Notes: a model not told the origin generated them from the letters alone. Counted from the first letter of the stretch, positions 7,186 through 33,129 are shown. The stretch is DNA of 64,000 nt from Escherichia coli (GCF_044324785.1 NZ_CP172127.1), one strand, 5' to 3'. Made by a program: numbers and translations.

Positions 7186-8036
7186 AAGGGAGATGAAAAA
7201 GGCAATAGCAGAACTGAGTGACAGTGAAACCATTCTGGCGTACAGGGTTGGATGGTGAAACTGATAAAAAACCCCCTCTGAAATTCTGTCAGAGGGGCTA
7301 GTCAATAAGGGAATAATATTCAACATGAAGATGTCTTCTGGGAATGTTTATATAGCAAATGCTTTCACTCCGGTAATTAATTTCCGTGATTAACTGCTTT
7401 CGATCAATAAAGGAATTGCAAAAGTGTGATCTTGTTCACGACATCGTGGATAATAATATGCCTGATGTCTGAATCCGGAAACAGTGCTCTGGCGGGTTTC
7501 ATGTGAAGTTGACGGATAAAAAATCCGCACGACCAGACAGACGTGCGGTTTACGAAATTCGTAACAAGAGGCTTTTCTACGGATCACGTGGTGCGTGCCA
7601 CGTGAAATTTTTGTAGCGCAAAATGTGTGATGTGTAAATACAAGGAAGGAAAAAAGTTAAATCGGTGGAAGTCCATACCTGCCACGTGTACGTCTGCATT
7701 CCTCGTTTTGAACAGAATTCTCACCAGACATCGTGAATTTCTCATTCAATCATCAGAGATATTAACCAGGATTTTTATTGTTTTGTGATATCAGCAGTGC
7801 AGGTATACAGACATTAAAGTAATCAGGTTTATTATAACCACCTTTACAAAGTTGTATGTGTTTATAATTTAAGGATTTTAATGCCAGTCGTTTTCTGCTG
7901 CTTAAATTGAGGTCGCATATTATACACAATAATATTCCTGGCATTATTAAATTAATAAAAGAGGATTCTTATCACTGTATTTTTGCTCCGCACTACCGTT
8001 CTGGCTGGTGAAGTAATAATACAGGAGAATAACAGA

Positions 8037-9233
<1,197 letters not shown>

Positions 9234-9294: not shown

Positions 9295-9750
9295 ATGCTG
9301 GATATAATCCTGGCGACGAGAGATATTTATTTTGAAAAAGCCCTGCGAGAGATATTTGGAACCGTAAGCAGTCGAATCAGATATATAGAAGATGCCATAT
9401 CAGACAGAAGAAGGGTGCAGTCAGGCAGGTCATTCAGATATTATTTTGTATTCTGTGATGATGAGTATACAGATATTGTTCGTATTCTTTTTACCGGAGA
9501 GGCCTGCTGTATTCTGAATAAGTCGATGCTGAATCTGAGAGCGGCCGGAGGTGTGTTGACGCTGGAAGAGCGCAGAGCGGTACTGAACCGGTATTACAGA
9601 GGTTTAAGTATTGCGGAGATTACAGAAGAGACGGGGCAGAATGACAAGACGGTATACGGTCATCTTCGTCGTGCACTGCAGCGGTCTGGATTCCGGAAGG
9701 GGCGTTTTATAAAGGGGAGAGAAGCGGCGGGGGATTCAGGTGTTGAATAA
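9295..9750 (+). CDS. Small HTH transcriptional regulator (sigma-70 region-4/LuxR-type HTH at C-terminus)
   Basis: 151 aa; C-terminal LTLEERRAVLNRYYRGLSIAEITEETGQNDKTVYGHLRRAL resembles a region-4-type HTH; immediately downstream of the adhesin. Confidence 0.5.
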   Translation: MLDIILATRDIYFEKALREIFGTVSSRIRYIEDAISDRRRVQSGRSFRYYFVFCDDEYTDIVRILFTGEACCILNKSMLNLRAAGGVLTLEERRAVLNRYYRGLSIAEITEETGQNDKTVYGHLRRALQRSGFRKGRFIKGREAAGDSGVE

Positions 9751-17179: not shown

Positions 17180-18496
17180 TTAAGACTTCGTCGATTTCTC
17201 AAAGCGGCGTAGTAACTGATTCCCACGCTCAACGGCGGTATCCAGCGCCTGCTGTGGCGTCTTCTTACCGGTCCACACGCTCTCAAGCTCTTCATCCACA
17301 ATCGCTCTGATCTGCGGCATGTTGCCCAGACGTAGTCCTTTGGTGAACGGTAACGACGGTTTGTTCAGCATCTGACGTGTCGCGATATCCGCCCCTGGGT
17401 TTTTCTCGTAAAAGCCCTGCTCACGGGTCAGGTCATACGCCGCTTTGGTGATTGGCAGATAACCGGTTTTCTGGTGCCACTCGGCAGCATTTTCTGGCTT
17501 CGCGAGGAAGTCGAGGAACTTCGCCACGCCGGTATACGTTTCTTTATCTTTGCCCTGCATCACCCACAGGCTGGCTCCGCCGATAATGGCGTTTTGTGGT
17601 GCATCTTTCGCGTCAGCGTCGTAAGGCATCATGCCTACGCCGTAGTTGAATTTGGCGTACTCGCGAATGCTGGCAAGAGAACCAGAAGAGGCAGTCGTCA
17701 TTGCGCAATCACCGTTATAGAACTTCTCGGTGGATTCATCCTTACGCCCGACGTAGCTGAAATCGCCTTTCTTGTTCATCTCTTCGAGCATGGCGATGTG
17801 TTTCACCTGCTCCGGCTTGTTGAACTCCAGCACCGCATCTGTGCCGTCAAAGCCGTTGTTTTTGCTGGCAAACGGCAGACCGTTCCAGGCGCTAAAGTTT
17901 TCCAGTTGGATCCAGCCCTGCCAGCCGCTGGAGTAGCCGCACTTCATACCGGAGGCTTTCAGTTTCGCGGCATAGTCCGCCAGATCCTGCCAGGTTTTCG
18001 GCGGCTGTTCCGGGTCTAATCCTGCTTTCTTGAAAGCATCTTTGTTGTAATAGAGAACAGGAGTCGAGCTGTTGAACGGCTGGGAGAGTAAGTGTCCGGT
18101 TTTACTGTCGGAGTAGTAGCCTGAAACCGTCGGCACAAACTGCGACTCATCAAAGTTAATCCCCGCCTCTTTAAACACGTCATACACCGGTTTAATGGCT
18201 TTCGACGCCATCATGGTGGCGGTGCCAACTTCATAAACCTGCAAAATAGCCGGAGCGTTACCGGTACGAAATGCTGCGATCCCCGCACTTAAACTCTCTT
18301 CGTAGTTGCCTTTATAAGTCGGTATAATTTTGTAATCCGGGTTTTCGGCGTTAAAACGTTGGACCAGAGAATTCACCTCTTTACCCAGTTCCCCTTCCAT
18401 AGAGTGCCAGAACGGAATGGTCGTCACTGCCTGTGCATTCCCCATTAACGTCAGTCCGAGCACTAGTGCTGAAGCTGTATAATGTAACGGTTTCAT
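17180..18496 (-). CDS. ugpB: sn-glycerol-3-phosphate ABC transporter periplasmic binding protein UgpB (orphan copy)
   Basis: 438 aa with signal peptide; sequence matches my recollection of E. coli UgpB along its length; no ugpAEC downstream, IS remnants on both sides. Confidence 0.8.
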
Positions 18497-19559: not shown

Positions 19560-20720
19560 CAGATAGTGGATGTATCTTAAAATAAGAGACAGGCTTGGAT
19601 ATATGTCTGACACTGGTTCTAATTTTGAGATGACTGGAACTTTGCCGGGGCTGGAGCTTCGTAAACGTAAAACTCCTCAGGAAAAAATTGGCATTATTCA
19701 GCAGACAATGGAGCCTGGCATGGCGGTGTCACATGTGGCGCGTTTGCGTTGTATTCAGCCCTGCCTGTTGTTTAAGTGGAAAAACAATCTCTGGAAGGAA
19801 GTCTCACTGCTGTTGCTTCAGGAGAGGGTGTCGTTCCTGCCTCAGAACTGCCTGCCGCTATAAAACAAATAAAAGAGTTACAGCTCTTGCTGGGTAAAAA
19901 ACCATGGAAGTTTAGATCCTCAAAGAAGTGGGTGGTGGAGTATGCGCAATCGCGAAAATGGATAGCGCATGTGCCCTTGTTACCTTCGGACAAGGAATAG
20001 CCCCGGTAAGCCGTGTTCTGGGCGATACTCAGGCGGCAGTCCCTAAATGAAGGACTACCGTTAGTGAATGCAAAGCGCGTTTACCGGATAATGAGCGAAA
20101 ATATCCTGTTGTTACATGACAAACCATCACGACTGCAGCGGGAACATAAAGGCCGAATATCGGTAAGGAAAGCGACCAGCGTTGATGTTCTGATGGCTTT
20201 GAGTTCGGTTGCGATGATGGCGAAAAAGTCCGGGTTACGTTCGCCCTGGACTGTTGCGATCGTGAAGCTATCGACTGGGCATCCAATACGGGAGGTTACA
20301 ATAAAGCGACAGTGCAGGATGTGATGTTAGGAGCGATAGAAAAACTCTTTGGCGATAAAGTACCGGAACAGTCCATCCGGTGGTTGACAGATAACGGTTC
20401 AGCGTATAGAGCGCATGAAACACGGCAGTTCGCCAGAGAGTTGGATCTGGAGCCCTGCACAACGGCAATCAGCAGCTCTCAGAGTAATGGAATGGCAGAA
20501 AGGTTAGTGAAAACGATGAAGGAAGACTACATTGCGTTCATACCGAAACCGAATGTAATAACGGCATTGCATAACCTTGCATAGGCGTTCGAGAATTACA
20601 ATGAGAACCACCCGCATAGTGCGTTAGGTTATCTCTCACCACGGGAATATCGATGTCAGCGGATAACGTCACCTTAGATGTAGCAGTTGCCAAACAGTGA
20701 CTCAAGGGCAGGCTTACCGC
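19560..20720 (+). mobile_element. IS2-like (IS3-family) element remnant with degraded orfA/orfB
   Basis: Fragments RKRKTPQEKIGIIQQTMEPGMAVSHVARL...[28 protein letters not shown] (InsC-like) and ...NAKRVYRIM...[14 protein letters not shown]...[25 protein letters not shown] (InsD-like), broken by stops and frameshifts. Confidence 0.7.
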
Positions 20721-20794
20721 ATACGCTGACACTTAGCTGATCGACAGAATATTATTAACAGTTCATCACTGAACGCTACATAATCAGAGTTGCA

Positions 20795-20820
20795 TAAATA
20801 AAATGTTATGTTATAACATT
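20795..20820. promoter_or_regulatory. Possible Fur-box-like AT-rich hexamer repeats upstream of the TonB-dependent receptor
   Basis: ATAAATAAAATGTTATGTTATAACATT contains partially palindromic NATWAT-like hexamers; weak match. Confidence 0.25.
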
Positions 20821-20843
20821 TTAATACCAACATATGTTTTCGA

Positions 20844-22814
20844 ATGTATATGAATGTAATCAGAACTGTCATTTGTACATTAATTATAGTCCCGGTGGGA
20901 CTACAGGCAGCGACCAGTCATTCTTCTATGGCTAAAGATACAATCACCATTGTCGCGACAGGAAATCAGAACACGGTATTTGAAACGCCGTCGATGGTCA
21001 GTGTCGTCACGAATGACACACCGTGGAGTCAGAATGCGGTTACATCGGCCGGCATGCTGAAAGGTGTTGCCGGTCTCAGCCAGACTGGTGCAGGACGGAC
21101 CAATGGGCAGACCTTTAATCTACGCGGCTATGACAAAAGCGGGGTACTTGTTCTTGTTGACGGCGTCCGCCAACTCAGTGACATGGCAAAAAGCAGTGGC
21201 ACTTATCTGGATCCGGCTCTTGTCAAACGTATCGAAGTTGTCCGCGGGCCAAACTCCAGTCTGTACGGCAGTGGCGGGCTGGGAGGTGTAGTGGACTTCA
21301 GAACTGCCGATGCAGCAGATTTCCTTCCCCCCGGAGAGACAAACGGTTTAAGTCTGTGGGGAAATATTGCCAGTGGTGACCACAGCACAGGCTCGGGGCT
21401 CACCTGGTTCGGTAAAACCGGAAAAACAGATGCGCTCCTTTCTGTCATTATGCGTAAAAGAGGTAATATCTATCAAAGTGATGGTGAGCGCGCACCTAAC
21501 AAGGAAAAACCTGCAGCCCTGTTTGCGAAAGGCTCTGTCGGTATAACAGACAGTAACAAAGCAGGTGCCAGCTTGCGTCTCTACCGGAATAACACCACTG
21601 AACCGGGCAATCCCACTCAGACACATGGTGACAGCGGCCTGCGTGACAGAAAAACAGTACAAAATGACGTACAGTTCTGGTACCAGTACGCTCCTGTGGA
21701 TAACAGCCTCATCAATGTAAAGTCAACGTTATATCTCAGTGATATCACTATCAAGACAAACGGTCACAACAAAACGGCAGAATGGAGAAACAACAGAACC
21801 TCCGGTGTTAATGTTGTCAACAGGAGTCATACTCTGATTTTTCCGGGAGCCCATCAGTTAAGTTATGGCGCTGAATATTACCGTCAGCAGCAGAAGCCAG
21901 AAGGCTCTGCCACACTATATCCGGAAGGAAATATTGACTTTACATCGTTGTATTTCCAGGATGAAATGACAATGAAAAGCTACCCTGTTAACATTATCGT
22001 CGGTTCCCGCTATGACCGGTACAAGAGCTTCAATCCCCGTGCCGGAGAACTGAAAGCCGAACGCCTGTCCCCAAGGGCGGCGATTTCAGTCTCACCGACA
22101 GACTGGCTGATGATGTACGGCTCCATATCCTCTGCATTCCGAGCGCCCACAATGGCAGAAATGTACAGGGATGATGTACATTTTTACCGCAAGGGTAAAC
22201 CCAATTACTGGGTTCCTAACCTTAATCTGAAACCAGAAAATAACATCACCCGTGAGATTGGCGCAGGTATTCAACTGGATGGCCTGCTTACAGACAATGA
22301 CCGGCTGCAGTTAAAAGGCGGATATTTCGGAACGGATGCCAGAAACTATATTGCCACACGCGTGGATATGAAACGGATGCGTTCTTATTCTTATAATGTA
22401 TCCCGGGCCCGTATCTGGGGATGGGATATGCAGGGAAATTACCAGTCTGATTATGTTGACTGGGTGCTTTCTTATAACCGGACGGAAAGTATGGATGCCA
22501 GCAGCAGGGAATGGCTGGGCTCCGGCAATCCTGACACACTTATCAGTGACATCAGCATACCTGTTGGTCATAGAGGCGTTTATGCCGGATGGCGTGCTGA
22601 ACTTTCAGCATCAGCCACGCATGTGAAAAAAGGCGACTCCTATCAGGCTGGCTATGCCATACATTCCTTTTCACTGTCTTATAAGCCTGTAAGTGTTAAA
22701 GGCTTTGAGGCGTCAGTAACTCTGGATAATGCCTTCAACAAGCTTGCCATGAATGGCAAAGGTGTGCCGCTTTCAGGCCGAACTGTCAGTCTTTATACCC
22801 GTTATCAGTGGTAA
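20844..22814 (+). CDS. TonB-dependent outer-membrane heme/hemoglobin receptor (ChuA/ShuA/HmuR family)
   Basis: 656 aa; signal peptide, TonB box DTITIVATG, plug and barrel motifs (GRTNGQTFNLRGYD, LVLVDGVRQ), C-terminal YQW; collinear with ChuA but clearly divergent. Confidence 0.85.
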   Translation: MYMNVIRTVICTLIIVPVGLQAATSHSSMAKDTITIVATGNQNTVFETPSMVSVVTNDTPWSQNAVTSAGMLKGVAGLSQTGAGRTNGQTFNLRGYDKSGVLVLVDGVRQLSDMAKSSGTYLDPALVKRIEVVRGPNSSLYGSGGLGGVVDFRTADAADFLPPGETNGLSLWGNIASGDHSTGSGLTWFGKTGKTDALLSVIMRKRGNIYQSDGERAPNKEKPAALFAKGSVGITDSNKAGASLRLYRNNTTEPGNPTQTHGDSGLRDRKTVQNDVQFWYQYAPVDNSLINVKSTLYLSDITIKTNGHNKTAEWRNNRTSGVNVVNRSHTLIFPGAHQLSYGAEYYRQQQKPEGSATLYPEGNIDFTSLYFQDEMTMKSYPVNIIVGSRYDRYKSFNPRAGELKAERLSPRAAISVSPTDWLMMYGSISSAFRAPTMAEMYRDDVHFYRKGKPNYWVPNLNLKPENNITREIGAGIQLDGLLTDNDRLQLKGGYFGTDARNYIATRVDMKRMRSYSYNVSRARIWGWDMQGNYQSDYVDWVLSYNRTESMDASSREWLGSGNPDTLISDISIPVGHRGVYAGWRAELSASATHVKKGDSYQAGYAIHSFSLSYKPVSVKGFEASVTLDNAFNKLAMNGKGVPLSGRTVSLYTRYQW

Positions 22815-22832
22815 CCTCTCAGGAAATAAATC

Positions 22833-23624
22833 ATGATGAAAAATACAGGCTATATCTTAGCTCTTTGTCTGACAGCATCGGGGCATGTCCTGGCCCATGA
22901 TGTCTGGATTACCGGCAAACAGGCAGAGAACAACGTTATCGCAGAGATTGGTTATGGTCATAATTTCCCCTCAAAGGGCACGATTCCTGACAGAAGGGAT
23001 TTCTTTGAAACTCCCCGGCTTTATAACGGGAAAGAGACAATAACGCTGAAGCCAACATCCACGGATTATGTCTATAAAATTGAGTCTGCAGGCAACGGTA
23101 ATAGCTACGTTCTGTCAACGAAAATGAAACCGGGATACTGGTCGAGAACCTCGTCAGGATGGAAGCCTGTCAGCCGGGAGGGCAGAAATGATGTGGCATA
23201 CTGTGAGTTTGTGACTAAATATGCAAAATCTTTTATTCCTGGTGAACAGCAGATGCCAGCACAACTCTATCAGTATCCAATAGGGGATGAGCTTGAAATC
23301 ATTCCGTTATCCGATATCAGTCGTTTCGGTGAAGATGTGAAGCTGAAAGTTCTGTATAAAACTTCCCCGCTTGCCGGAGCCACTCTGGAGCTTGACTCTG
23401 TCAGTTATCTGAAATCATCCCGCCATACTCATGCGGCAGAGCATAAACATTCGGCTCATAAAGCAGAACTTACCTTTGTAAGTAATGAGGACGGTATCAT
23501 CACTGTACCCTCCCTTCATGTCGGGCAATGGCTAGCTAAAGTCAAAAATAAGAAAGTATTTCAGGACAAAAACCTGTGTGATGAAACTGTCGATGTGGCA
23601 ACCTTAAGCTTCTCCCGAAATTAA
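22833..23624 (+). CDS. Periplasmic DUF4198-like protein co-transcribed with the TonB-dependent receptor
   Basis: 263 aa; signal peptide then HDVWI start of the mature protein, as in DUF4198 proteins; 18 bp after the receptor gene. Confidence 0.5.
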   Translation: MMKNTGYILALCLTASGHVLAHDVWITGKQAENNVIAEIGYGHNFPSKGTIPDRRDFFETPRLYNGKETITLKPTSTDYVYKIESAGNGNSYVLSTKMKPGYWSRTSSGWKPVSREGRNDVAYCEFVTKYAKSFIPGEQQMPAQLYQYPIGDELEIIPLSDISRFGEDVKLKVLYKTSPLAGATLELDSVSYLKSSRHTHAAEHKHSAHKAELTFVSNEDGIITVPSLHVGQWLAKVKNKKVFQDKNLCDETVDVATLSFSRN

Positions 23625-24038
23625 TAATACTATTCCTGCCCTGTAATTTACGGGCAGGGTATATCAACCGGAAATAGCCTACTGACATCCATGTATAAAG
23701 CCACATAATTATTTTGTTGATGTATCTTACCTAATACGTAAGCGTAAAGCCAATGCCGTCTGTAACTCCTGATCCTTGCAGACTAAATGTAAGCGCTCCT
23801 TCTGTGCCGTCTTGTGGTGGTTGTCCTGTCTGGCAACAATCGCGTCCATCTATTGATGGACACGAATGATGAATTCTCAGACAACAAAAGATATCACCGG
23901 CTTTCGCTCTTATTTTCCAGATGTATTGCGACTAATATTCGAAGAGCAATTATCTGTTCGGGCTATCGCACTGGAGCAGTTAGGCCTCAGTCATTCCACC
24001 GTTCATAATATCTTTCAACGGTTTAATGCCTCTGGCAT

Positions 24039-24111
24039 GTAAGCGTAAACCGACCGTTGTATTGACGCTTATTTATAGGGGAGAACTACGTTCCATGGCA
24101 GGAGTTCGTCA
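24039..24111 (-). mobile_element. IS66-family terminal fragment (duplicate of the 24994-25066 tip)
   Basis: GTAAGCGTAAACCGACCG... plus about 55 bp identical or near-identical to the end of the IS66 copy at 24994. Confidence 0.55.
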
Positions 24112-24182
24112 GTAAGCGTACAGCCTGAACCGTCTGGTCAGAATCTGACGCATTAGACAAAGTGGTGTCCACAAAATAAGTA

Positions 24183-24584
24183 GTGGGAACCAAAGTGTCA
24201 GATATGCAGAAAAATGTGACTCCCGGCAGGCGAAAAGGCTGCCCTAATTATCCTCCCGAATTTAAACAGCTGCTCGTTGCTGCCTCCTGTGAACCCGGGA
24301 TATCCATCTCAAAACTTGCTCTTGAAAATGGCATTAACGCCAATCTGTTGTTCAAATGGCGACAACAATGGCGCGAGGGAAAGCTGCTATTACCTTCTTC
24401 AGAGAGCCCCCAGCTACTTCCTGTGACTCTCGATGCAGCTGCCGAACAGCCAGAATCGCTCGCAGAGGACCCGGAAACCCTCAGTATCAGCTGTGAGGTA
24501 ACGTTCCGGCACGGGACGCTCCGCTTCAATGGCAATGTCAGCGAAAAGCTCCTGACTCTGCTGATACAGGAACTGAAACGATGA
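24183..24584 (+). CDS. tnpA: IS66-family accessory protein TnpA (orfA)
   Basis: 133 aa; ...ISKLALENGINANLLFKWRQQW motif; preceded by IS66 IR GTAAGCGTACAGCC at 24112. Confidence 0.8.
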   Translation: MGTKVSDMQKNVTPGRRKGCPNYPPEFKQLLVAASCEPGISISKLALENGINANLLFKWRQQWREGKLLLPSSESPQLLPVTLDAAAEQPESLAEDPETLSISCEVTFRHGTLRFNGNVSEKLLTLLIQELKR

Positions 24585-24928
24585 TCCCGTTACCTTCCGG
24601 GACCAAAATTTGGCTGGTTGCCGGTATCACCGATATGAGAAATGGCTTCAACGGCCTGGCTGCGAAAGTACAGACGGCGCTGAAAGACGATCCCATATCC
24701 GGCCATGTTTTCATTTTCCGGGGCCGCAGCGGCAGTCAGGTTAAACTGCTGTGGTCCACCGGTGACGGGCTGTGCCTCCTGACCAAGCGGCTGGAGCGTG
24801 GGCGCTTCGCCTGGCCGTCAGCCCGTGATGGCAAAGTGTTCCTTACGCAGGCGCAGCTGGCGATGCTGCTGGAAGGTATCGACTGGCGACAGCCTAAGCG
24901 GCTGCTGACCTCCCTGACCATGCTGTAA
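24581..24928 (+). CDS. tnpB: IS66-family TnpB (orfB)
   Basis: 115 aa; MIPLPSGTKIWLVAGITDMRNGFNGLAAKV typical of IS66 orfB; the transposase orfC is missing. Confidence 0.8.
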   Translation: MIPLPSGTKIWLVAGITDMRNGFNGLAAKVQTALKDDPISGHVFIFRGRSGSQVKLLWSTGDGLCLLTKRLERGRFAWPSARDGKVFLTQAQLAMLLEGIDWRQPKRLLTSLTML

Positions 24929-25023
24929 ATCTCTTTATCCTGGTTGTCACAGAATAAGCCCGGTAAAATACGGGCTTATGAACGACATCTCTTGTAAGCG
25001 TCAACGGAGCACCGTATTGACGC

Positions 25024-26616
25024 TTATTTATTGGTGAGTACTACGTTCCATGGCAGGAGTTCGTCAACACAGTTGGAGGGCCATTCCGGCAGTACGCTCA
25101 GAATATGGCGCAGATACGCTTCCGGATCGATACCGTTCAGACGGCAGGTGCCGATCAGCCCGTACAGCAGTGCTCCACGCTCGCCGCCGTGATCGCTACC
25201 GAAGAACACGTAATTTTTCTTTCCGAGACAGACTGCACGAAGCGCTCTTTCCGCTGTGTTATTGTCCGCTTCTGCCAAACCATCATCACTGTAATAACAG
25301 AGGGCGTCCCACTGATTCAGTACATAGCTGAACGCTTCGCCCAGTCTGGATTTTTTCGACAGCGTGCCATTCTTCTCCACCATCCATTCATGCAGCGACG
25401 TCAGTAACGCTTTGCTTCGCTGCTGCCTGGCTGCAAGACGCTCTGACTCTGGTAATCCCCGTATTTCATCCTCGATGGCGTACAGTTCACTGATTCACTT
25501 CAGGGCTTCTTCTGCCGTCGCACTTTTGCTGCTGATGTATACATCGTGGATTTTTCGCCGGGCATGGGCCCAGCACGCAACTTCTGTCAGTGCACCACCT
25601 TCACGTTCTGCACTGAACAACCTGTCGTAACCTGTGAACGCATCCGCCTGCAGGATACCCCGGAAGGGGCGAAGGTGTTGCTCCGGGTGTTTCCCCTGCC
25701 GGTTCGGCGAGTACGCGAACCAGACCGCTGGAGGAGATGACGAACCCACATTGCGATCATCCCGGACATACGTCCAGATACGCCCTGTTTTCGCCTTTTT
25801 CTGACCCGGTGCCAGTACCTTTACCGGTGTGTCATCAGTGTGAACCTTGCGGGTGTTCATTACATAACGGTACAGGGCATCATTCACCGGTGTCATTAAC
25901 TGGCAGCACGCGTCAACCCAGTTGGAGAGTAAGGCCCGGCTCAGTTCGACACCCTGGCGGGCAAAGATTTCACTCTGACGATACAGTGGCAGATGTTCGC
26001 AGTATTTTCCCGTTAACACGCGGGCAAGTAATCCGGGGCCCGCGATACCACGCTCTATCGGGCGGGACGGCGCCGGTGCTTCAACAATACAGTCACATTT
26101 TGTACAGGCTTTTTTTACCCGTTCTGTGCGGATCACTTTCAGGGCACTGCTCACCAGTTCCAGCTGTTCAGCGCTGACTTCCCCCAGATAATCCAGCTCA
26201 CCGCCACACTCCGGGCAACAGCTTTCTTCTGGCTCCAGGCGGTGTATTTCACGGGGAAGGTGTGCCGGTAACGGACGACGATGGCGCGACTGTCGCAACT
26301 GGCGGGGAACCTGAGGATCGTCTTCCCGCCCACTGTAACGATCGCTGTCCTGTTCACGTTGTTTCAGCAGAGCCTCAGCCAGTTCAACTTCACGACGCAG
26401 TTTTTCAGAACGGGTACCGAACAGCATCCGGTGCAGTTTTTCTATCTGAGCCCGCAGATGTTCTATTTCCCGTTCATCTTCTTCGATCTTTTCTTCGGCA
26501 CGTGCCAGTGCAGAGCGCAGGAAGGCCTCCGTCTCTTCAACCAGACTCAGTTGCTGGTCTTTCTGACGGAGCTGGCTTTCCAGTTCTGCAATGCGAATGA
26601 GGTATTTCTGACTCAT
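25024..26616 (-). pseudogene. tnpC: IS66-family transposase orfC, split into two ORFs
   Basis: 373-aa N-terminal and 119-aa C-terminal ORFs in different frames, both with IS66 transposase sequence (coiled-coil N-terminus, CxxC zinc motifs, DDE region). Confidence 0.7.
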
Positions 26617-26646
26617 GGCCGTTTTTATAATGCGGCCAGGCGTTTT

Positions 26647-26997
26647 TTACAACATTGTCAGTGCGTTAAGGCGGAATGTTTTTGGCTGACGCCAGTCCAG
26701 CTTATCGAGGAGCATTGCCAGTTGCGAGCGGGTAATGGATACCTTGCCGTCACGTACCGCAGGCCAGATAAACTGGCCTTCCTCCAGGCGTTTGGTGAAC
26801 AGGCACAGACCATCAGCATCAGCCCAAAGAATTTTGACGGTGTCACCCCGTCGGCCACGGAAGATAAACAGGTGACCGGAGAAGGGATTATCATTCAGCA
26901 CATGTTGTACCTGTTCTCCCAGTCCGTTGAAGGATTTACGCATATCGGTAACGCCGGCAACGAGCCAGATACGGGTACCTGATGGGAGTGAGATCAT
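26647..26997 (-). CDS. tnpB: IS66-family TnpB (orfB)
   Basis: 115 aa; paralog of 24581-24928 (MISLPSGTRIWLVAGVTDMRKSFNGL). Confidence 0.8.
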   Translation of the reverse strand: MISLPSGTRIWLVAGVTDMRKSFNGLGEQVQHVLNDNPFSGHLFIFRGRRGDTVKILWADADGLCLFTKRLEEGQFIWPAVRDGKVSITRSQLAMLLDKLDWRQPKTFRLNALTML

Positions 26998-27419
26998 CTT
27001 CCCCTCCCGGTCAGTTCACGGATCAACACTGTGAGCAGCTCTGGCGATGGATTTTCCAGCGTCATGTTACCGTGACGGAATTCCACCTTGCAGGAACTGG
27101 CACTGACTCTGGTCTGAGTGGAAGTGGATAAAGACGGCGCAATGGCCGCCACAGGTTCTTTCTGCTCATCCGGCGTTATTTCTACAGGTAATAATTCAAC
27201 GCCAGTGTCAGAAGAGGTCGTTACCGGAAGACGCCGCGAAACACGCCCTTCGTTCTGCCAGAGCCTGAGCCATTTGAAAATAACATTATCATTGACGCCA
27301 TTTTCACGTGCAATCTGTGCAACACAAGCTCCAGGTTGTGATGCCAGTTCCACCATACGAAGTTTGAATTCATTCGAATAGTTTTTACGAGGTTCTTTTC
27401 GCCAGTCCTGTAATTCCAT
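26994..27419 (-). CDS. tnpA: IS66-family TnpA (orfA)
   Basis: 141 aa; ...FKLRMVELASQPGACVAQIARENGVNDNVIFKWLRLWQNEGR. Confidence 0.8.
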   Translation of the reverse strand: MELQDWRKEPRKNYSNEFKLRMVELASQPGACVAQIARENGVNDNVIFKWLRLWQNEGRVSRRLPVTTSSDTGVELLPVEITPDEQKEPVAAIAPSLSTSTQTRVSASSCKVEFRHGNMTLENPSPELLTVLIRELTGRGR

Positions 27420-27504
27420 ACTTAGATGTCCGTCTATATCAGATGGGCGTCTAAGTTACCAATTCTCGTCTGATGGCTACATACGGCGGTCAGTTTACGC
27501 TTAC

Positions 27505-29631: not shown

Positions 29632-32600
29632 ATGAATAAGAATATACGAATTTTACAATTTCTGGTCAGTATACTTTATTCTGTGCAGTCTCATTTTTCT
29701 GGTGCGCAAACAATACAACTGAATGGTAATGGTATACCTGAAAGTATAACCAGGAGTATTACAGGTGTTGATGGAAACGCGGCGCTTAATATCAGCGTGC
29801 CGTATAAAACAAGTTATACTCAAAATATACTATCTGTTGAAAGCAGTATTAACATCAAAGGAGGAACAAGCAATACATCAATCGGTGGTGCAGGTGTCTA
29901 CGGTGAAAACTTTACGCTAAATAATAATGGTAGTGTTTGGGGAGGAGATGGATATAATGGTGGAATTGCTGTTAGTGGCAACAAAATATCTATAAACAAT
30001 TACAGAAATGTATATGGGGGTAATGGTCTTGGTGGCTCAGGAAGTAGCGGAGGTGCAGGGTTAAGCGGGGATGATATTATAGTTGATAATTACAGAAGTA
30101 TATACGGAGGTGATGATGTAGGTGGGACAGGTGGTTCCGGTGTAACCGGTAGCAATATTACAGTGCATAATTCCGGAGGAATATTGGGCGGTAATGGCGT
30201 AAACGGTGGTGATGGTATTAATGGTAGTAATCTTTTCATTACTAACGACAACATGATATCTGGAGGATATGGAATAAAACAAGGGGGAGATGCTATTTCT
30301 GGAAATCAAATCACTTTGAATAATAACGGTATTGTTCAGGGGGGATATGGCCCCGACGGTGGTTGCTCTGTTTATGGAGAAGATATCCATATTAATAATC
30401 ATGGTAATCTTTCAGGATTATATAATAGCCAAAAAGATGCTTATAATACATCAATAATTTTTTCTGGCGGGTATAATTCATTAGATATTTATTCAGATTC
30501 TGTGATTAATGGTGATATTAAACTAGCTAGTATACCTGTTAATGGTACAAATGAATTAATTATTAAAAACATCAATAACGCAACAGCAATTAATGGTGGG
30601 CTAATGATTGGGAATGGCTCATCTGTTTATCTGTCAGGCAAGAACTCCATTTTTAACGGAAATATAAGTATTGATGAAGACGCATCTATGAACCTGTCTG
30701 TAGGAAATGCTAATGTTCACGCAAATACTATTACATTAAAAAGTGATTCATGGCTTAATATAGACACATCAATTAAGAACTGGACTCAGGACTATTACAC
30801 ATTATTGTCGTCAGACACAGGTATCTCGATCGCTGATAATAGTCACATTGTACAATACAATGTATTACTGACAGAAGGTGCTGAAAGTTATGTTTATACG
30901 TCTTTAAATGACGACGATAACAAACTGATATCCATGCTGAGATGGAATAATACAAAAGGGATGGGATATGGAACCTTTAATATAGAAAAAGATGCCACTC
31001 TGAACATAGGCGTTTCTCTTTCCGATAATCTTTCACCTTTATTATATGATGGCTGGGACGGCAAAAGTCTGACAAAATCAGGTAATGGTACTCTTATACT
31101 TTCTGCAACAAACAATTATACAGGAAATACAGAGGTTAAATCTGGCGTATTAATTCTTGCTGCACCTGATGCTCTTGGTCGGACTGAGTATTTATATTTA
31201 TCCCGTGGCGCAGAACTGGATATGAATGGGTATCCTCAGACAATAAGCAAACTACTGACGGCTGCAGGCTCTGTGCTGAACATTCATGGCGGAAGTCTGA
31301 TACTGAATAATGGAGGAGAATCTGCAGGTACTATTGCAGGGGATGGTTCTCTGAACATAAATGGGGGAATGCTTGATATAACGGGTAATAATCGTAATTT
31401 TTCCGGTGTTTTTACCGTGAATAAGGGGGCTCATTTGGCTGTATCCACGGCTGATAATCTGGGGACAGCCTTTGTTGATAACTATGGCACATTAACTCTG
31501 AACAGTACATCAGCATGGCAGCTTACCAACAATATCAGTGGTTATGGTAATGTTCGCAAGACGGGAGCAGGTGCACTGAACATTAGCGATAACGCAAAAT
31601 GGACCGGGATGACAGATATTATTCAGGGGACAGTGATACTGGGGAACGCAGATTCACCGGTGATGCTCGGCAGTAACCAGGTCATTGTTGAAGAGCAGGG
31701 CAAACTCTCCGGGTTTGGGGGCGTTGCAGGAAATCTGAGCAATAGTGGTATAGTCGATCTCACTACATATATGCCGGGTAATATACTGACTGTCGGAGGG
31801 AATTACACTGGCAGAAATGGACTTATTCTCCTCCAGACAGAAACAGGTGGTGACAATTCGAAAACAGATCGTCTGGTGATTAAAGGTAATGCCAGTGGCC
31901 GTACCCGTGTCGCTGTTACTCAGGCCGGTGGTACTGGTGCAGAGACACTTAATGGGATTGAAGTGATTCACGTCAGTGGCAATGCTGATAATGCTGAATT
32001 CATTCAGACGGAACGTATTACAGCCGGAGCTTATGATTACATACTGAAACGTGGTCAGGGGATTAACAGCACTAACTGGTATCTGATTAGCAGAAAAGAC
32101 ATTCCTGTACCACAACCTGAAGCTGTACCGGAAAGCCATGATAATAATTTGCGTCCTGAGGCAGGTAGCTATGTTGCCAGTATTGCTGCTGCAAATAATC
32201 TGTTTGTAACGAATCTGTATGAACGACAGGGACAGGAGTTGTATATCAGCCACATGACAGGAGAAGAAAATGAAGCAGGTATCTGGATGTATAATAAAGG
32301 AAAACATAATCGCTGGCGTGACAACAGTAGTCAGCTGAGAACCCGGGGGAATAGCTACGTTGTGTTAATAGGGGGAGATATAGCTCAGTGGAGCCTGAAT
32401 GGTACCGATCGCTGGCATACAGGTATGATGGCTGGCTATGGTCATAATAATAACAGTACGAATGCCCTGAGCACCGGATACCATTCGGAAGGAAGAATGA
32501 ATGGATACACAGCGGGTCTTTATGCAACATGGTATGCCAATGATGAAACACACAATGGTTCTTATCTTGATAGCTGGCTGCAATACAGCTGGTTTGATAA

Positions 32601-33129
32601 TCATATAAATGGAGAACGGCTGCCTGCTGAGTCATGGAAGTCAAAAGGGTTTACGGTATCTCTGGAAGCAGGATATTCATGGAAGGCTGGAGAGTTTACC
32701 GACAATTACAAGGGAAGTCATGAATGGTATGTTCAGCCGCAGCTTCAGGTTGTCCGGATGAATGTAAAATCAGACAAATATCATGAAAGTAACGGAACCA
32801 GTATTGAAAATACCGGTAACGGAAATATTCTCACCCGCCTGGGAGCAAGAACATGGCTTACCAGCAAAAACGGTAAAAATACGCGGTATGCGGTTCCGTT
32901 CAGACCATTTGTGGAGGCACACTGGTTGCACAATAGTCGTGTTTTCGGCACCAGTATGAATGGTGTAAGTATATACCAGGATGGTGCGCGTGATATCGGA
33001 GAAATAAATGGTGGTGTTGTGGGAATGATAACACCAGAAGTAGCATTCCGGGCTGATGCAGGCATTCAACTTGGAGAACATGGATACCATAATACATCTG
33101 CCATGTTGAGTGTGGAATATCGTTTCTGA
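29632..33129 (+). CDS. Classical (type Va) autotransporter, AIDA-I-like passenger with Gly-rich beta-helix repeats
   Basis: 1165 aa; N-terminal leader, long passenger with repeated GG(x)G(x)G beta-strand repeats, C-terminal beta-barrel translocator ending ...SVEYRF; gene and upstream region visibly AT-rich. Confidence 0.85.
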   Translation: MNKNIRILQFLVSILYSVQSHFSGAQTIQLNGNGIPESITRSITGVDGNAALNISVPYKTSYTQNILSVESSINIKGGTSNTSIGGAGVYGENFTLNNNGSVWGGDGYNGGIAVSGNKISINNYRNVYGGNGLGGSGSSGGAGLSGDDIIVDNYRSIYGGDDVGGTGGSGVTGSNITVHNSGGILGGNGVNGGDGINGSNLFITNDNMISGGYGIKQGGDAISGNQITLNNNGIVQGGYGPDGGCSVYGEDIHINNHGNLSGLYNSQKDAYNTSIIFSGGYNSLDIYSDSVINGDIKLASIPVNGTNELIIKNINNATAINGGLMIGNGSSVYLSGKNSIFNGNISIDEDASMNLSVGNANVHANTITLKSDSWLNIDTSIKNWTQDYYTLLSSDTGISIADNSHIVQYNVLLTEGAESYVYTSLNDDDNKLISMLRWNNTKGMGYGTFNIEKDATLNIGVSLSDNLSPLLYDGWDGKSLTKSGNGTLILSATNNYTGNTEVKSGVLILAAPDALGRTEYLYLSRGAELDMNGYPQTISKLLTAAGSVLNIHGGSLILNNGGESAGTIAGDGSLNINGGMLDITGNNRNFSGVFTVNKGAHLAVSTADNLGTAFVDNYGTLTLNSTSAWQLTNNISGYGNVRKTGAGALNISDNAKWTGMTDIIQGTVILGNADSPVMLGSNQVIVEEQGKLSGFGGVAGNLSNSGIVDLTTYMPGNILTVGGNYTGRNGLILLQTETGGDNSKTDRLVIKGNASGRTRVAVTQAGGTGAETLNGIEVIHVSGNADNAEFIQTERITAGAYDYILKRGQGINSTNWYLISRKDIPVPQPEAVPESHDNNLRPEAGSYVASIAAANNLFVTNLYERQGQELYISHMTGEENEAGIWMYNKGKHNRWRDNSSQLRTRGNSYVVLIGGDIAQWSLNGTDRWHTGMMAGYGHNNNSTNALSTGYHSEGRMNGYTAGLYATWYANDETHNGSYLDSWLQYSWFDNHINGERLPAESWKSKGFTVSLEAGYSWKAGEFTDNYKGSHEWYVQPQLQVVRMNVKSDKYHESNGTSIENTGNGNILTRLGARTWLTSKNGKNTRYAVPFRPFVEAHWLHNSRVFGTSMNGVSIYQDGARDIGEINGGVVGMITPEVAFRADAGIQLGEHGYHNTSAMLSVEYRF

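Follow-up and report, generated by a model that had tools for sequence, protein, structure and literature searches.

We analysed a stretch of 64,000 nt from Escherichia coli (GCF_044324785.1 NZ_CP172127.1; "the window" hereafter means this whole stretch) and studied within it the region 20795-23624, which carries a gene for a TonB-dependent receptor related to ChuA, a gene for a secreted protein of the DUF4198 family directly behind it, and a palindrome upstream of both that we read as a predicted operator of the zinc regulator Zur. The features are collected in Table 1. The stop codon of the receptor gene ends at 22814 and the ATG of the DUF4198 gene is at 22833. An earlier reading of the window made from the sequence alone (the sequence-only reading) had described a ChuA-family receptor that is not ChuA, followed after 18 bp by a secreted protein beginning HDVW, and this description is borne out in each of its parts. 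The two genes are probably co-transcribed, as had also been proposed, since no intrinsic terminator is predicted on the plus strand between them, nor is one predicted after them; the spacing between receptor and DUF4198 genes is 6-18 bp in all orthologous pairs. The true start of the receptor is probably the second ATG, at 20850, because the Klebsiella orthologue starts there.

The upstream palindrome and the putative promoter

The AT-rich element at 20800-20822 had been noticed before and had been suggested to be a Fur box; the palindrome stands, and is perfect, but its attribution to Fur does not. The pattern AAATGTTATNNNATAACATTT has a single match in the 64 kb, with 0 mismatches, and only 0.03 matches would be expected even if 3 mismatches were allowed. 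Two Zur consensus patterns were used, both as cited by Gilston et al. (PMC4219657): the proteobacterial Zur box GAAATGTTATA-N-TATAACATTTC agrees with the palindrome at 19/22 positions and the structure-derived E. coli pattern TGWNAYRWTATAWYRTNWCA at 17/18 specified positions. All positions (8/8) of the Zur core skeleton RNNNYRNNRYNNYRNNNY are likewise present, including the central TATA that is said to set E. coli Zur boxes apart from Fur boxes (PMC4219657). A position weight matrix (PWM) was built from four validated E. coli Zur operators, namely those of znuA/znuC, zinT and ykgM in MG1655 and the J96 hlyII oligonucleotide, which bound Zur in an electrophoretic mobility shift assay (PMC5916954). 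With this matrix the site at 20800 scores 23.6 bits and is by far the best in the window, where no other unrelated site exceeds 12.3 bits, and a 15-nt core, GTTATGTTATAACAT, is the same in the ykgM operator, the hlyII oligonucleotide and the palindrome.

The scoring for Fur gave a different picture. Nowhere in the window does a site come within 3 mismatches of the 19-bp Fur consensus, and the best match in the 260 bp upstream of the operon reaches 12/19 and does not lie at the palindrome. A weak match (10/14) to the 7-1-7 Fur half-pattern is present about 100 bp upstream. On these two consensus scans, 19-mer and 7-1-7, a Fur box was rejected, and we identify the palindrome as a predicted Zur (zinc) operator, so that the expected signal for the operon would be zinc limitation and not iron limitation.

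The palindrome overlies the putative promoter. A sigma-70 consensus scanner did not report the combination TTGCAT-16 nt-TATAAC, because the -35 hexamer matches just 3/6 of TTGACA, and the promoter is therefore one that we infer. The E. coli alleles and Klebsiella all retain GTTGCA at a comparable spacing from the box. At znuC and zinT the Zur box spans -22 to -3 (PMC5916954), and the position of the palindrome over the putative -10 resembles this box-over-promoter layout.

Relatives of the DUF4198 protein are found on a Klebsiella pneumoniae plasmid (79% identity), in a divergent E. coli allele (75%), in Salmonella enterica and Providencia rettgeri (each about 40%), and on metagenomic contigs. 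When species-representative genomes were scanned with the clade profile, the pair of S. enterica subsp. diarizonae was the only clade member returned, the other 21 loci being distant DUF4198 genes of Synergistota, Deltaproteobacteria and Campylobacter. The DUF4198 gene directly follows a ChuA-like receptor gene, at a gap of 6-18 bp, in 6/7 recovered contexts, five of them with a full-length receptor gene of about 655 aa and one (L010) with a partial gene; the seventh (L012) has no recognisable receptor gene upstream of DUF4198 and carries a Zur-like box (17/22) about 215 nt upstream.

When 7 related loci of 10-19 kb were scanned in full, the best PWM match of each fell 44-50 nt before the ATG of the receptor gene, and the scores of the individual boxes are given in Table 1. 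Between genera the flanking promoter DNA is unalignable and the DUF4198 proteins are about 40% identical; that the box has been kept while the promoter DNA around it cannot be aligned is the strongest argument for a functional operator. Taken with the consensus and matrix scores, this makes control of the operon by Zur very likely.

One metagenomic contig (ERR14656792_4512; L017 4169-4381) has the pair directly downstream of a Sit/Yfe-like ATP-binding cassette (ABC) operon, with a ZnuA-family gene and two permeases. The promoter of that ABC operon has a Fur-like site (15/19) together with a long palindrome, ATAGC...GCTAT, which by eye is MntR-like, and the pair retains its own Zur box within the 174-bp gap. 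Three metal regulators thereby appear to act within 4 kb, and we regard the link to the ABC transporter operon as neutral for the zinc reading developed below.

The receptor and its DUF4198 partner

The receptor contains the Pfam domains Plug (PF07715, 1.1e-23) and TonB barrel (PF00593, 9.5e-37). It scores 414 bits with TIGR01785 (TonB-hemin; the heme/hemoglobin receptor subfamily), for which the cut-off is 316.85, and with TIGR01786 it falls just under the cut-off (314.6 against 323.75). ChuA (9dhe) and ShuA (3fhh) are its best solved relatives (E about 1e-166), yet its identity with ChuA over the full length is 42%. With ChuA and ShuA it shares the plug-plus-barrel architecture, an end-to-end alignment, the TonB box, which the sequence-only reading had rightly recognised, the FRAP motif and the histidine of loop 7, and like them it is found on mobile or pathogenicity-island DNA.

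The differences from ChuA and ShuA lie in the plug, in loop 7 and in the genomic context. Where these two have H68 and H86 the window receptor has lysines, and both positions are lysine in 7/7 clade receptors (that of the window and six others). Loop 7 of ChuA is one residue longer, and its NPNL corresponds to NLNL in the E. coli alleles studied here and to NPDL or NPNL in other clade members. ChuA comes with a Fur box and with chuS/TUV/WXY neighbours, whereas the window receptor has the predicted Zur box and a DUF4198 neighbour. In ChuA, heme is coordinated by His86 of the plug and His420 of loop 7, the latter serving as the chief ligand in the crystal structure of ChuA with heme; the H86A mutation raises the minimal concentration needed 32-fold for hemoglobin and 16-fold for hemin, and the H420A mutant is nearly dead (PMC12241658). 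Heme-utilisation genes (chu/hem/hmu) are adjacent neither in the window nor in 8 related loci, in agreement with the earlier remark that the usual heme-transport partners are missing. By its sequence the receptor is a member of the heme-receptor family, but it lacks one functional hallmark of that family, the plug histidine, along with the customary Fur box and heme-utilisation neighbours, and because the ChuA plug ligand His86 is a lysine here, heme appears a less likely substrate than had been implied.

Zur-regulated TonB-dependent zinc receptors are established in Neisseria, Pseudomonas and Caulobacter. A ZnuD orthologue was looked for and rejected, NF038289 giving 46.7 bits against a cut-off of 950 and covering residues 9-154 (the plug) only; no ZnuD chain was among the PDB matches at E <= 1e-10. 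The system of the window would resemble ZnuD/TdfJ and TdfH of Neisseria, ZnuD of Pseudomonas and Acinetobacter, and ZnuK/ZnuL of Caulobacter as a TonB-dependent receptor under Zur, in a pathogen facing zinc sequestration by the host. It differs from these receptors in its ChuA lineage and in being encoded together with a DUF4198 protein.

The partner protein matches PF10670 (DUF4198) with 88.6 bits against a cut-off of 34, so that the relationship suggested earlier holds and the refuting outcome named with it, a partner without a profile match to DUF4198, did not occur. Structure prediction, which the sequence-only reading had proposed as a check, gave an AlphaFold2 model with a predicted local distance difference test (pLDDT) score of 90.8 and a three-layer beta-sandwich, the Zcp/DUF4198 fold. 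Zcp (NGO1049) of Neisseria gonorrhoeae, the first and so far the only DUF4198 protein to be characterised, is Zur-regulated and monocistronic; it forms a homodimer in the periplasm, each subunit holding one Zn with H29, H31 and H142 (dissociation constant 0.31 uM), and without it growth in low zinc is impaired (PMC12663993; PDB 9mhi-9mho). Zcp is the best match of the partner both by sequence in the PDB (9mhi, E 3e-22, identity 23-25%) and by fold (Foldseek, TM score 0.74-0.83), the next fold match being a Ni-bound DUF4198 protein. The two proteins are alike in fold, in the Sec signal peptide, in the upstream Zur box and in a disulfide-forming pair of cysteines (C127/C250 in Zcp, C124 and C249 in the partner, where both are invariant in the clade); Zcp is monocistronic, whereas the partner is encoded by the second gene of a receptor operon.

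The metal-site residues are arranged differently. We looked in the partner for the histidine triad of Zcp, which is absent: H29, H31 and H142 align to Q30, E32 and E138, and these positions are not conserved in the clade. The partner has instead H43, present in 81/89 homologues, where Zcp has Glu, and a 14-residue histidine-rich loop. Its signal peptide ends at ...VLA, directly before HDVW, as judged by inspection and by the invariance of the A21/H22 junction (A21 is found in 82/89 homologues). H22 is placed opposite H43 across a predicted hairpin (strands 23-31 and 34-42), at the far end from the Zcp site, and this register is a predicted one only. The loop at aa 197-210 holds 4-8 His in each of the ten clade members that were examined; of the other DUF4198 proteins listed, nearly all have a short loop or one poor in His, P0038 (5 His) being an exception. 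DUF4198 proteins of cluster 1 have the His triad and those of cluster 2 a histidine-rich disordered C-terminal tail (PMC12663993); the partner has no C-terminal His tail, its C-terminus reading ...ATLSFSRN, and so has a third histidine-rich layout beside these two. The Zcp construct that was crystallised carries extra residues before the N-terminal His (the chain reads ...GAMV-H), and we speculate that the Zcp crystals therefore cannot speak to an N-terminal site.

Genomic setting and distribution

The stretch 20600-23800 is identical (100%) to the chromosomes of many strains, including the avian pathogenic E. coli strain IMT5155. Homology between alleles is confined to the pair with about 140 bp before it and 113 bp after it, and insertion sequence (IS) fragments are found on both sides. 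The allele of the uropathogenic E. coli (UPEC) strain 82.0312 is 96.5% identical, and there the module stands beside iroBCDEN; CFT073 has a receptor gene of equal length at the corresponding place next to the iro cluster, the region examined there ending within that gene.

In 82.0312 the pair is followed, 264 bp downstream, by a gene for a CobW/COG0523 GTPase (L003 11149-12345; PF02492, PF07683), and COG0523 genes are recurrent members of Zur regulons (PMC2770081, PMC6103462). The Zur-regulated COG0523 clusters described by Haas et al. 2009 (PMC2770081) resemble the 82.0312 allele in having the COG0523 gene; that survey depicts outer-membrane proteins in such clusters and lists one on the Klebsiella virulence plasmid pLVPK. 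They differ from the window, where the COG0523 gene is absent. Homology with the 82.0312 allele ends at a GTAAGCG motif, further copies of which occur at 23789, 24039 and 24112, and IS66 genes then follow. We take GTAAGCG to be the terminal repeat of an IS66-family element, and it appears that an IS66-family insertion removed the COG0523 gene from the copy in the window. The 82.0312 CobW/COG0523 protein apparently misses the canonical CxCC motif, the stretch reading ...SITSDSISS... by eye from the translation, and its gene has no strong Zur box of its own, the top two PWM matches of the locus both lying at the receptor promoter. Directly 3' of the operon in the window is a pile-up of IS66-family sequences (23738-27420), and this arrangement differs from that of IMT5155, which is otherwise identical across the operon.

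Table 1. Features at and around the receptor-DUF4198 pair (window coordinates), and Zur boxes of related loci
Feature	Position	Strand	Remarks
Putative -35 hexamer TTGCAT	20790-20795	+	inferred; 16 nt upstream of TATAAC
Predicted Zur operator AAAATGTTATGTTATAACATTTT	20800-20822		perfect 10-3-10 inverted repeat
Putative -10 hexamer TATAAC	20812-20817	+	inferred from sequence; within Zur box
TonB-dependent receptor, ChuA/ShuA paralogue	20844-22814	+	656 aa; dN/dS between alleles 0.12-0.18
TonB box DTITIVATG	20937-20963	+	aa 32-40; aligns with N-terminus of mature ChuA, ETMTVTATG
Plug apex DMAKSS	21180-21197	+	K116 at ChuA His86 position; K98 at ChuA His68 position
Loop 7 region, FRAP...H446...NPNL-like	22137-22229	+	AFRAPTM, H446 (= ChuA His420), VPNLNL
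Intergenic spacer, 18 bp	22815-22832	+	Shine-Dalgarno-like AGGAA (22821-22825), 7 nt before ATG
Secreted DUF4198 protein, Zcp fold	22833-23624	+	263 aa; dN/dS 0.19-0.22
His22 codon, predicted first mature residue	22896-22898	+	H22 in 89/89 homologues
Histidine-rich loop RHTHAAEHKHSAHK	23421-23462	+	aa 197-210; model pLDDT 64-80 (low confidence)
GC-rich hairpin, without U-tract	23635-23658	+	11 nt 3' of stop; kept in UPEC-type allele, there before cobW-family gene
End of homology with UPEC-type (82.0312) allele	23738-23744		homology to 23737; first GTAAGCG motif
IS66 tnpA/tnpB pair	24183-24928	+	
IS66 truncated tnpC	25024-26616	-	
IS66 tnpB/tnpA	26647-27419	-	
Zur box, Salmonella (S. enterica subsp. 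diarizonae), AAAATGTTATGTTATAACATTTC			26.7 bits
Zur box, Providencia rettgeri, GTTATGTTATAACATAACCTATA			25.9 bits
Zur box, metagenomic contig			26.2 bits
Zur box, E. coli plasmid allele			23.0 bits
Zur box, E. coli UPEC-type allele (82.0312)			23.3 bits
Zur box, divergent E. coli allele			19.8 bits
Zur box, Klebsiella plasmid			half-site only, 15 bits

Among 5426 complete E. coli genomes, 1190 contain the pair, in 424 chromosomal and 819 plasmid copies, and at a query coverage of at least 80% it is found in 1123 E. coli genomes. In PLSDB it is carried by 762 plasmids, of which 727 are from Escherichia and 592 are conjugative, many of them from isolates of blood, urine or cerebrospinal fluid. 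In E. coli the pair is mostly on IncF plasmids, and the plasmid copies typically adjoin a RepB-family replication gene (probably RepFIB); some plasmids carry truncated copies. Both genes are under purifying selection, with ratios of nonsynonymous to synonymous substitution (dN/dS) of 0.09-0.22.

The two genes of the window differ in their synonymous divergence from the plasmid and 82.0312 alleles, which is 0.22-0.27 for the DUF4198 gene and 0.03-0.09 for the receptor gene; between the plasmid and 82.0312 alleles it is equal in both genes (0.09). The DUF4198 gene of the window therefore seems to have an ancestry of its own, which would point to recombination within the operon.

Elsewhere in the window, an orphan ugpB gene (sn-glycerol-3-phosphate binding protein) without ugpAEC lies at 17180-18496 on the minus strand, followed by a fragment of a PemK/MazF-type toxin gene and IS remnants. 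A 1165-aa open reading frame at 29632-33129 (plus strand) is equal in length to the autotransporter annotated at the matching place in IMT5155. Between 36000 and 60000 the window is GC-rich (up to 0.61 GC) and holds an integrative conjugative element of the SPI-7 type, with genes for dnaB-PI, ParB, an STY4528-family replication protein, topoisomerase III and TraD; at least 80% of this region is covered in just 7/5426 complete E. coli genomes. Closer to the beginning lie a gene for a YadA-like adhesin (about 7980-9230, plus strand) and one for a c-type lysozyme inhibitor (about 9360-9700, minus strand), both annotated in the identical region of IMT5155. The Zur regulon of K-12 includes the g-type lysozyme inhibitor pliG, and the PWM scan found no Zur box near the c-type inhibitor gene.

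Proposed zinc acquisition and the alternative readings

We propose, as the reading that is probably though not securely correct, that the pair forms a Zur-repressed, horizontally mobile operon of two genes for the acquisition of zinc under zinc starvation. When zinc is sufficient, Zur with bound zinc would occupy the 23-bp palindrome overlapping the -10 hexamer and block transcription; expression would set in under a shortage of zinc such as that in host tissue. The receptor, energised by TonB, would then bring zinc itself or a ligand loaded with it through the outer membrane, and the DUF4198 protein, by homology to Zcp, would capture the metal in the periplasm through its N-terminal His, His43 and the His-rich loop. 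The captured metal may be buffered or passed on, presumably toward the core ZnuABC/ZinT system, with ZnuABC completing import. The analysis itself establishes the gene structures, the family memberships, the operator sequence with its conservation, the residue substitutions, the distribution and the purifying selection. Binding by Zur in vivo, the hand-over route and zinc as the substrate are what we infer, and of zinc as the transported substrate we would say that it is somewhat better than an even chance. The earlier description of the pair as an iron or metal uptake module whose substrate was undefined survives as a metal module with its substrate still undefined, and loses its iron half together with the Fur box.

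Several observations weigh against the zinc proposal. The receptor lies above the curated cut-off of the heme/hemoglobin subfamily TIGR01785 and has retained FRAP, the NPNL-like motif and, in loop 7, the histidine with which ChuA chiefly binds heme, which leaves room for heme or a porphyrin; nor is it an orthologue of ZnuD, and none of its surface loops is so clearly rich in His/Asp as to suggest a zinc site. The partner is without the three zinc-binding histidines of Zcp, and Zcp is itself dispensable for zinc import (PMC12663993), its crystals having bound Cu, Co and Ni too. The other solved DUF4198 protein is Ni-bound, and the Klebsiella plasmid copy has a half-box only.

The main rival takes up the first of these points: the receptor would be Zur-controlled and would still take up heme or a metalloporphyrin (heme itself, or zinc-protoporphyrin as a source of zinc), its regulation alone having shifted from iron to zinc, and the DUF4198 protein would be a separate periplasmic zinc buffer. 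The TIGR01785 score, the full-length identity with ChuA and the retention of FRAP, His446 and the NPNL-like motif accord with it, as do the role of His420 as the main heme ligand in ChuA and the residual function that H86A mutants retain. We consider it unlikely nevertheless, since both plug histidines are lysines throughout the clade and the loss of His86 alone costs ChuA 16- to 32-fold in minimal substrate concentration; moreover, no genes for a heme-binding protein, an ABC transporter or heme degradation stand beside the pair in any locus examined, and the module holds nothing that would free zinc from a porphyrin.

The remaining rivals are smaller. That the pair takes up or buffers a different divalent metal (Ni, Co or Cu) under the control of Zur would suit the occupation of the Zn site in Zcp crystals by Cu, Co and Ni, and the fact that the only other solved DUF4198 protein is Ni-bound NikK, an accessory component of a nickel energy-coupling factor (ECF) transporter, for which our literature search gave no structural paper. 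An N-terminal His combined with a second His may also resemble the histidine-brace copper sites of CopC and YcnI. We hold this reading to be decidedly doubtful, however, because zinc is the metal sensed by Zur of E. coli, a COG0523 gene of the zinc-linked kind accompanies the module, and no nickel or cobalt enzymes or transporters adjoin the pair in the loci examined. The sequence-only reading, a Fur-regulated pair for iron or heme uptake induced by iron limitation, could appeal to the heme-receptor family of the receptor, to the effect of iron limitation on DUF4198 genes in Caulobacter, Alteromonas and Avibacterium, and to the weak 7-1-7 half-pattern; it is highly improbable given the failure of the 19-bp Fur consensus both at the operon and across the 64 kb, the agreement of the palindrome with the Zur box in every test, and the central TATA that distinguishes the two kinds of box. 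That the pair is non-functional cargo, a decaying remnant between insertion sequences, as the IS fragments on both sides, the lost third gene and the truncated copies on some plasmids might suggest, is barely credible in view of two intact reading frames, the low dN/dS, a promoter and operator kept in three allele groups, and the full-length copies in more than a thousand genomes.

Beyond the zinc acquisition operon as proposed, a bolder version can be put forward as a conjecture of low probability, in which pathogenic E. coli would possess, on plasmids and islands, a system of zinc piracy that evolved from the heme-piracy receptor ChuA. The receptor would dock on a zinc-sequestering protein of the host (calprotectin or another S100 protein) or take up a zinc chelate, and the DUF4198 protein would relay the metal with a family-wide site formed by the N-terminal His and His43 and with the His loop of the clade, a way of binding metal that the Zcp crystals do not show.

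To our knowledge, the textbook Zur regulon of E. coli (znuABC, zinT, ykgMO and pliG) includes no protein of the outer membrane. A review of enterobacterial metal transport describes the route of zinc across the outer membrane, by a TonB-dependent receptor or by porins, as unclear (PMC3852070), and a 2025 study of ChuA names ChuA and Hma as the only heme receptors identified in E. coli and Shigella. The ChuA paralogue studied here is annotated in RefSeq as a receptor of the hemoglobin/transferrin/lactoferrin family, and a literature search, which did not cover subscription-only papers, yielded none that describes this operon. Zur-regulated TonB-dependent zinc receptors, Zur-regulated DUF4198 proteins and Zur-linked COG0523 genes are already known elsewhere, each singly. 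What is new is their combination in E. coli, a receptor of the ChuA lineage with exchanged plug ligands, the joining of receptor and DUF4198 genes in one operon, and the layout of histidines in the partner.

The partner offers a second, genetically tractable model for the DUF4198 family, with a layout of the metal site that differs from that of Zcp. If the pair is indeed a zinc system, then it would be a widespread and overlooked factor in the response of E. coli to nutritional immunity, carried on IncF plasmids and beside the salmochelin island of CFT073, and its receptor would be a surface-exposed candidate antigen. It would also provide a natural case in which a heme receptor has been re-purposed through its plug ligands and its promoter.

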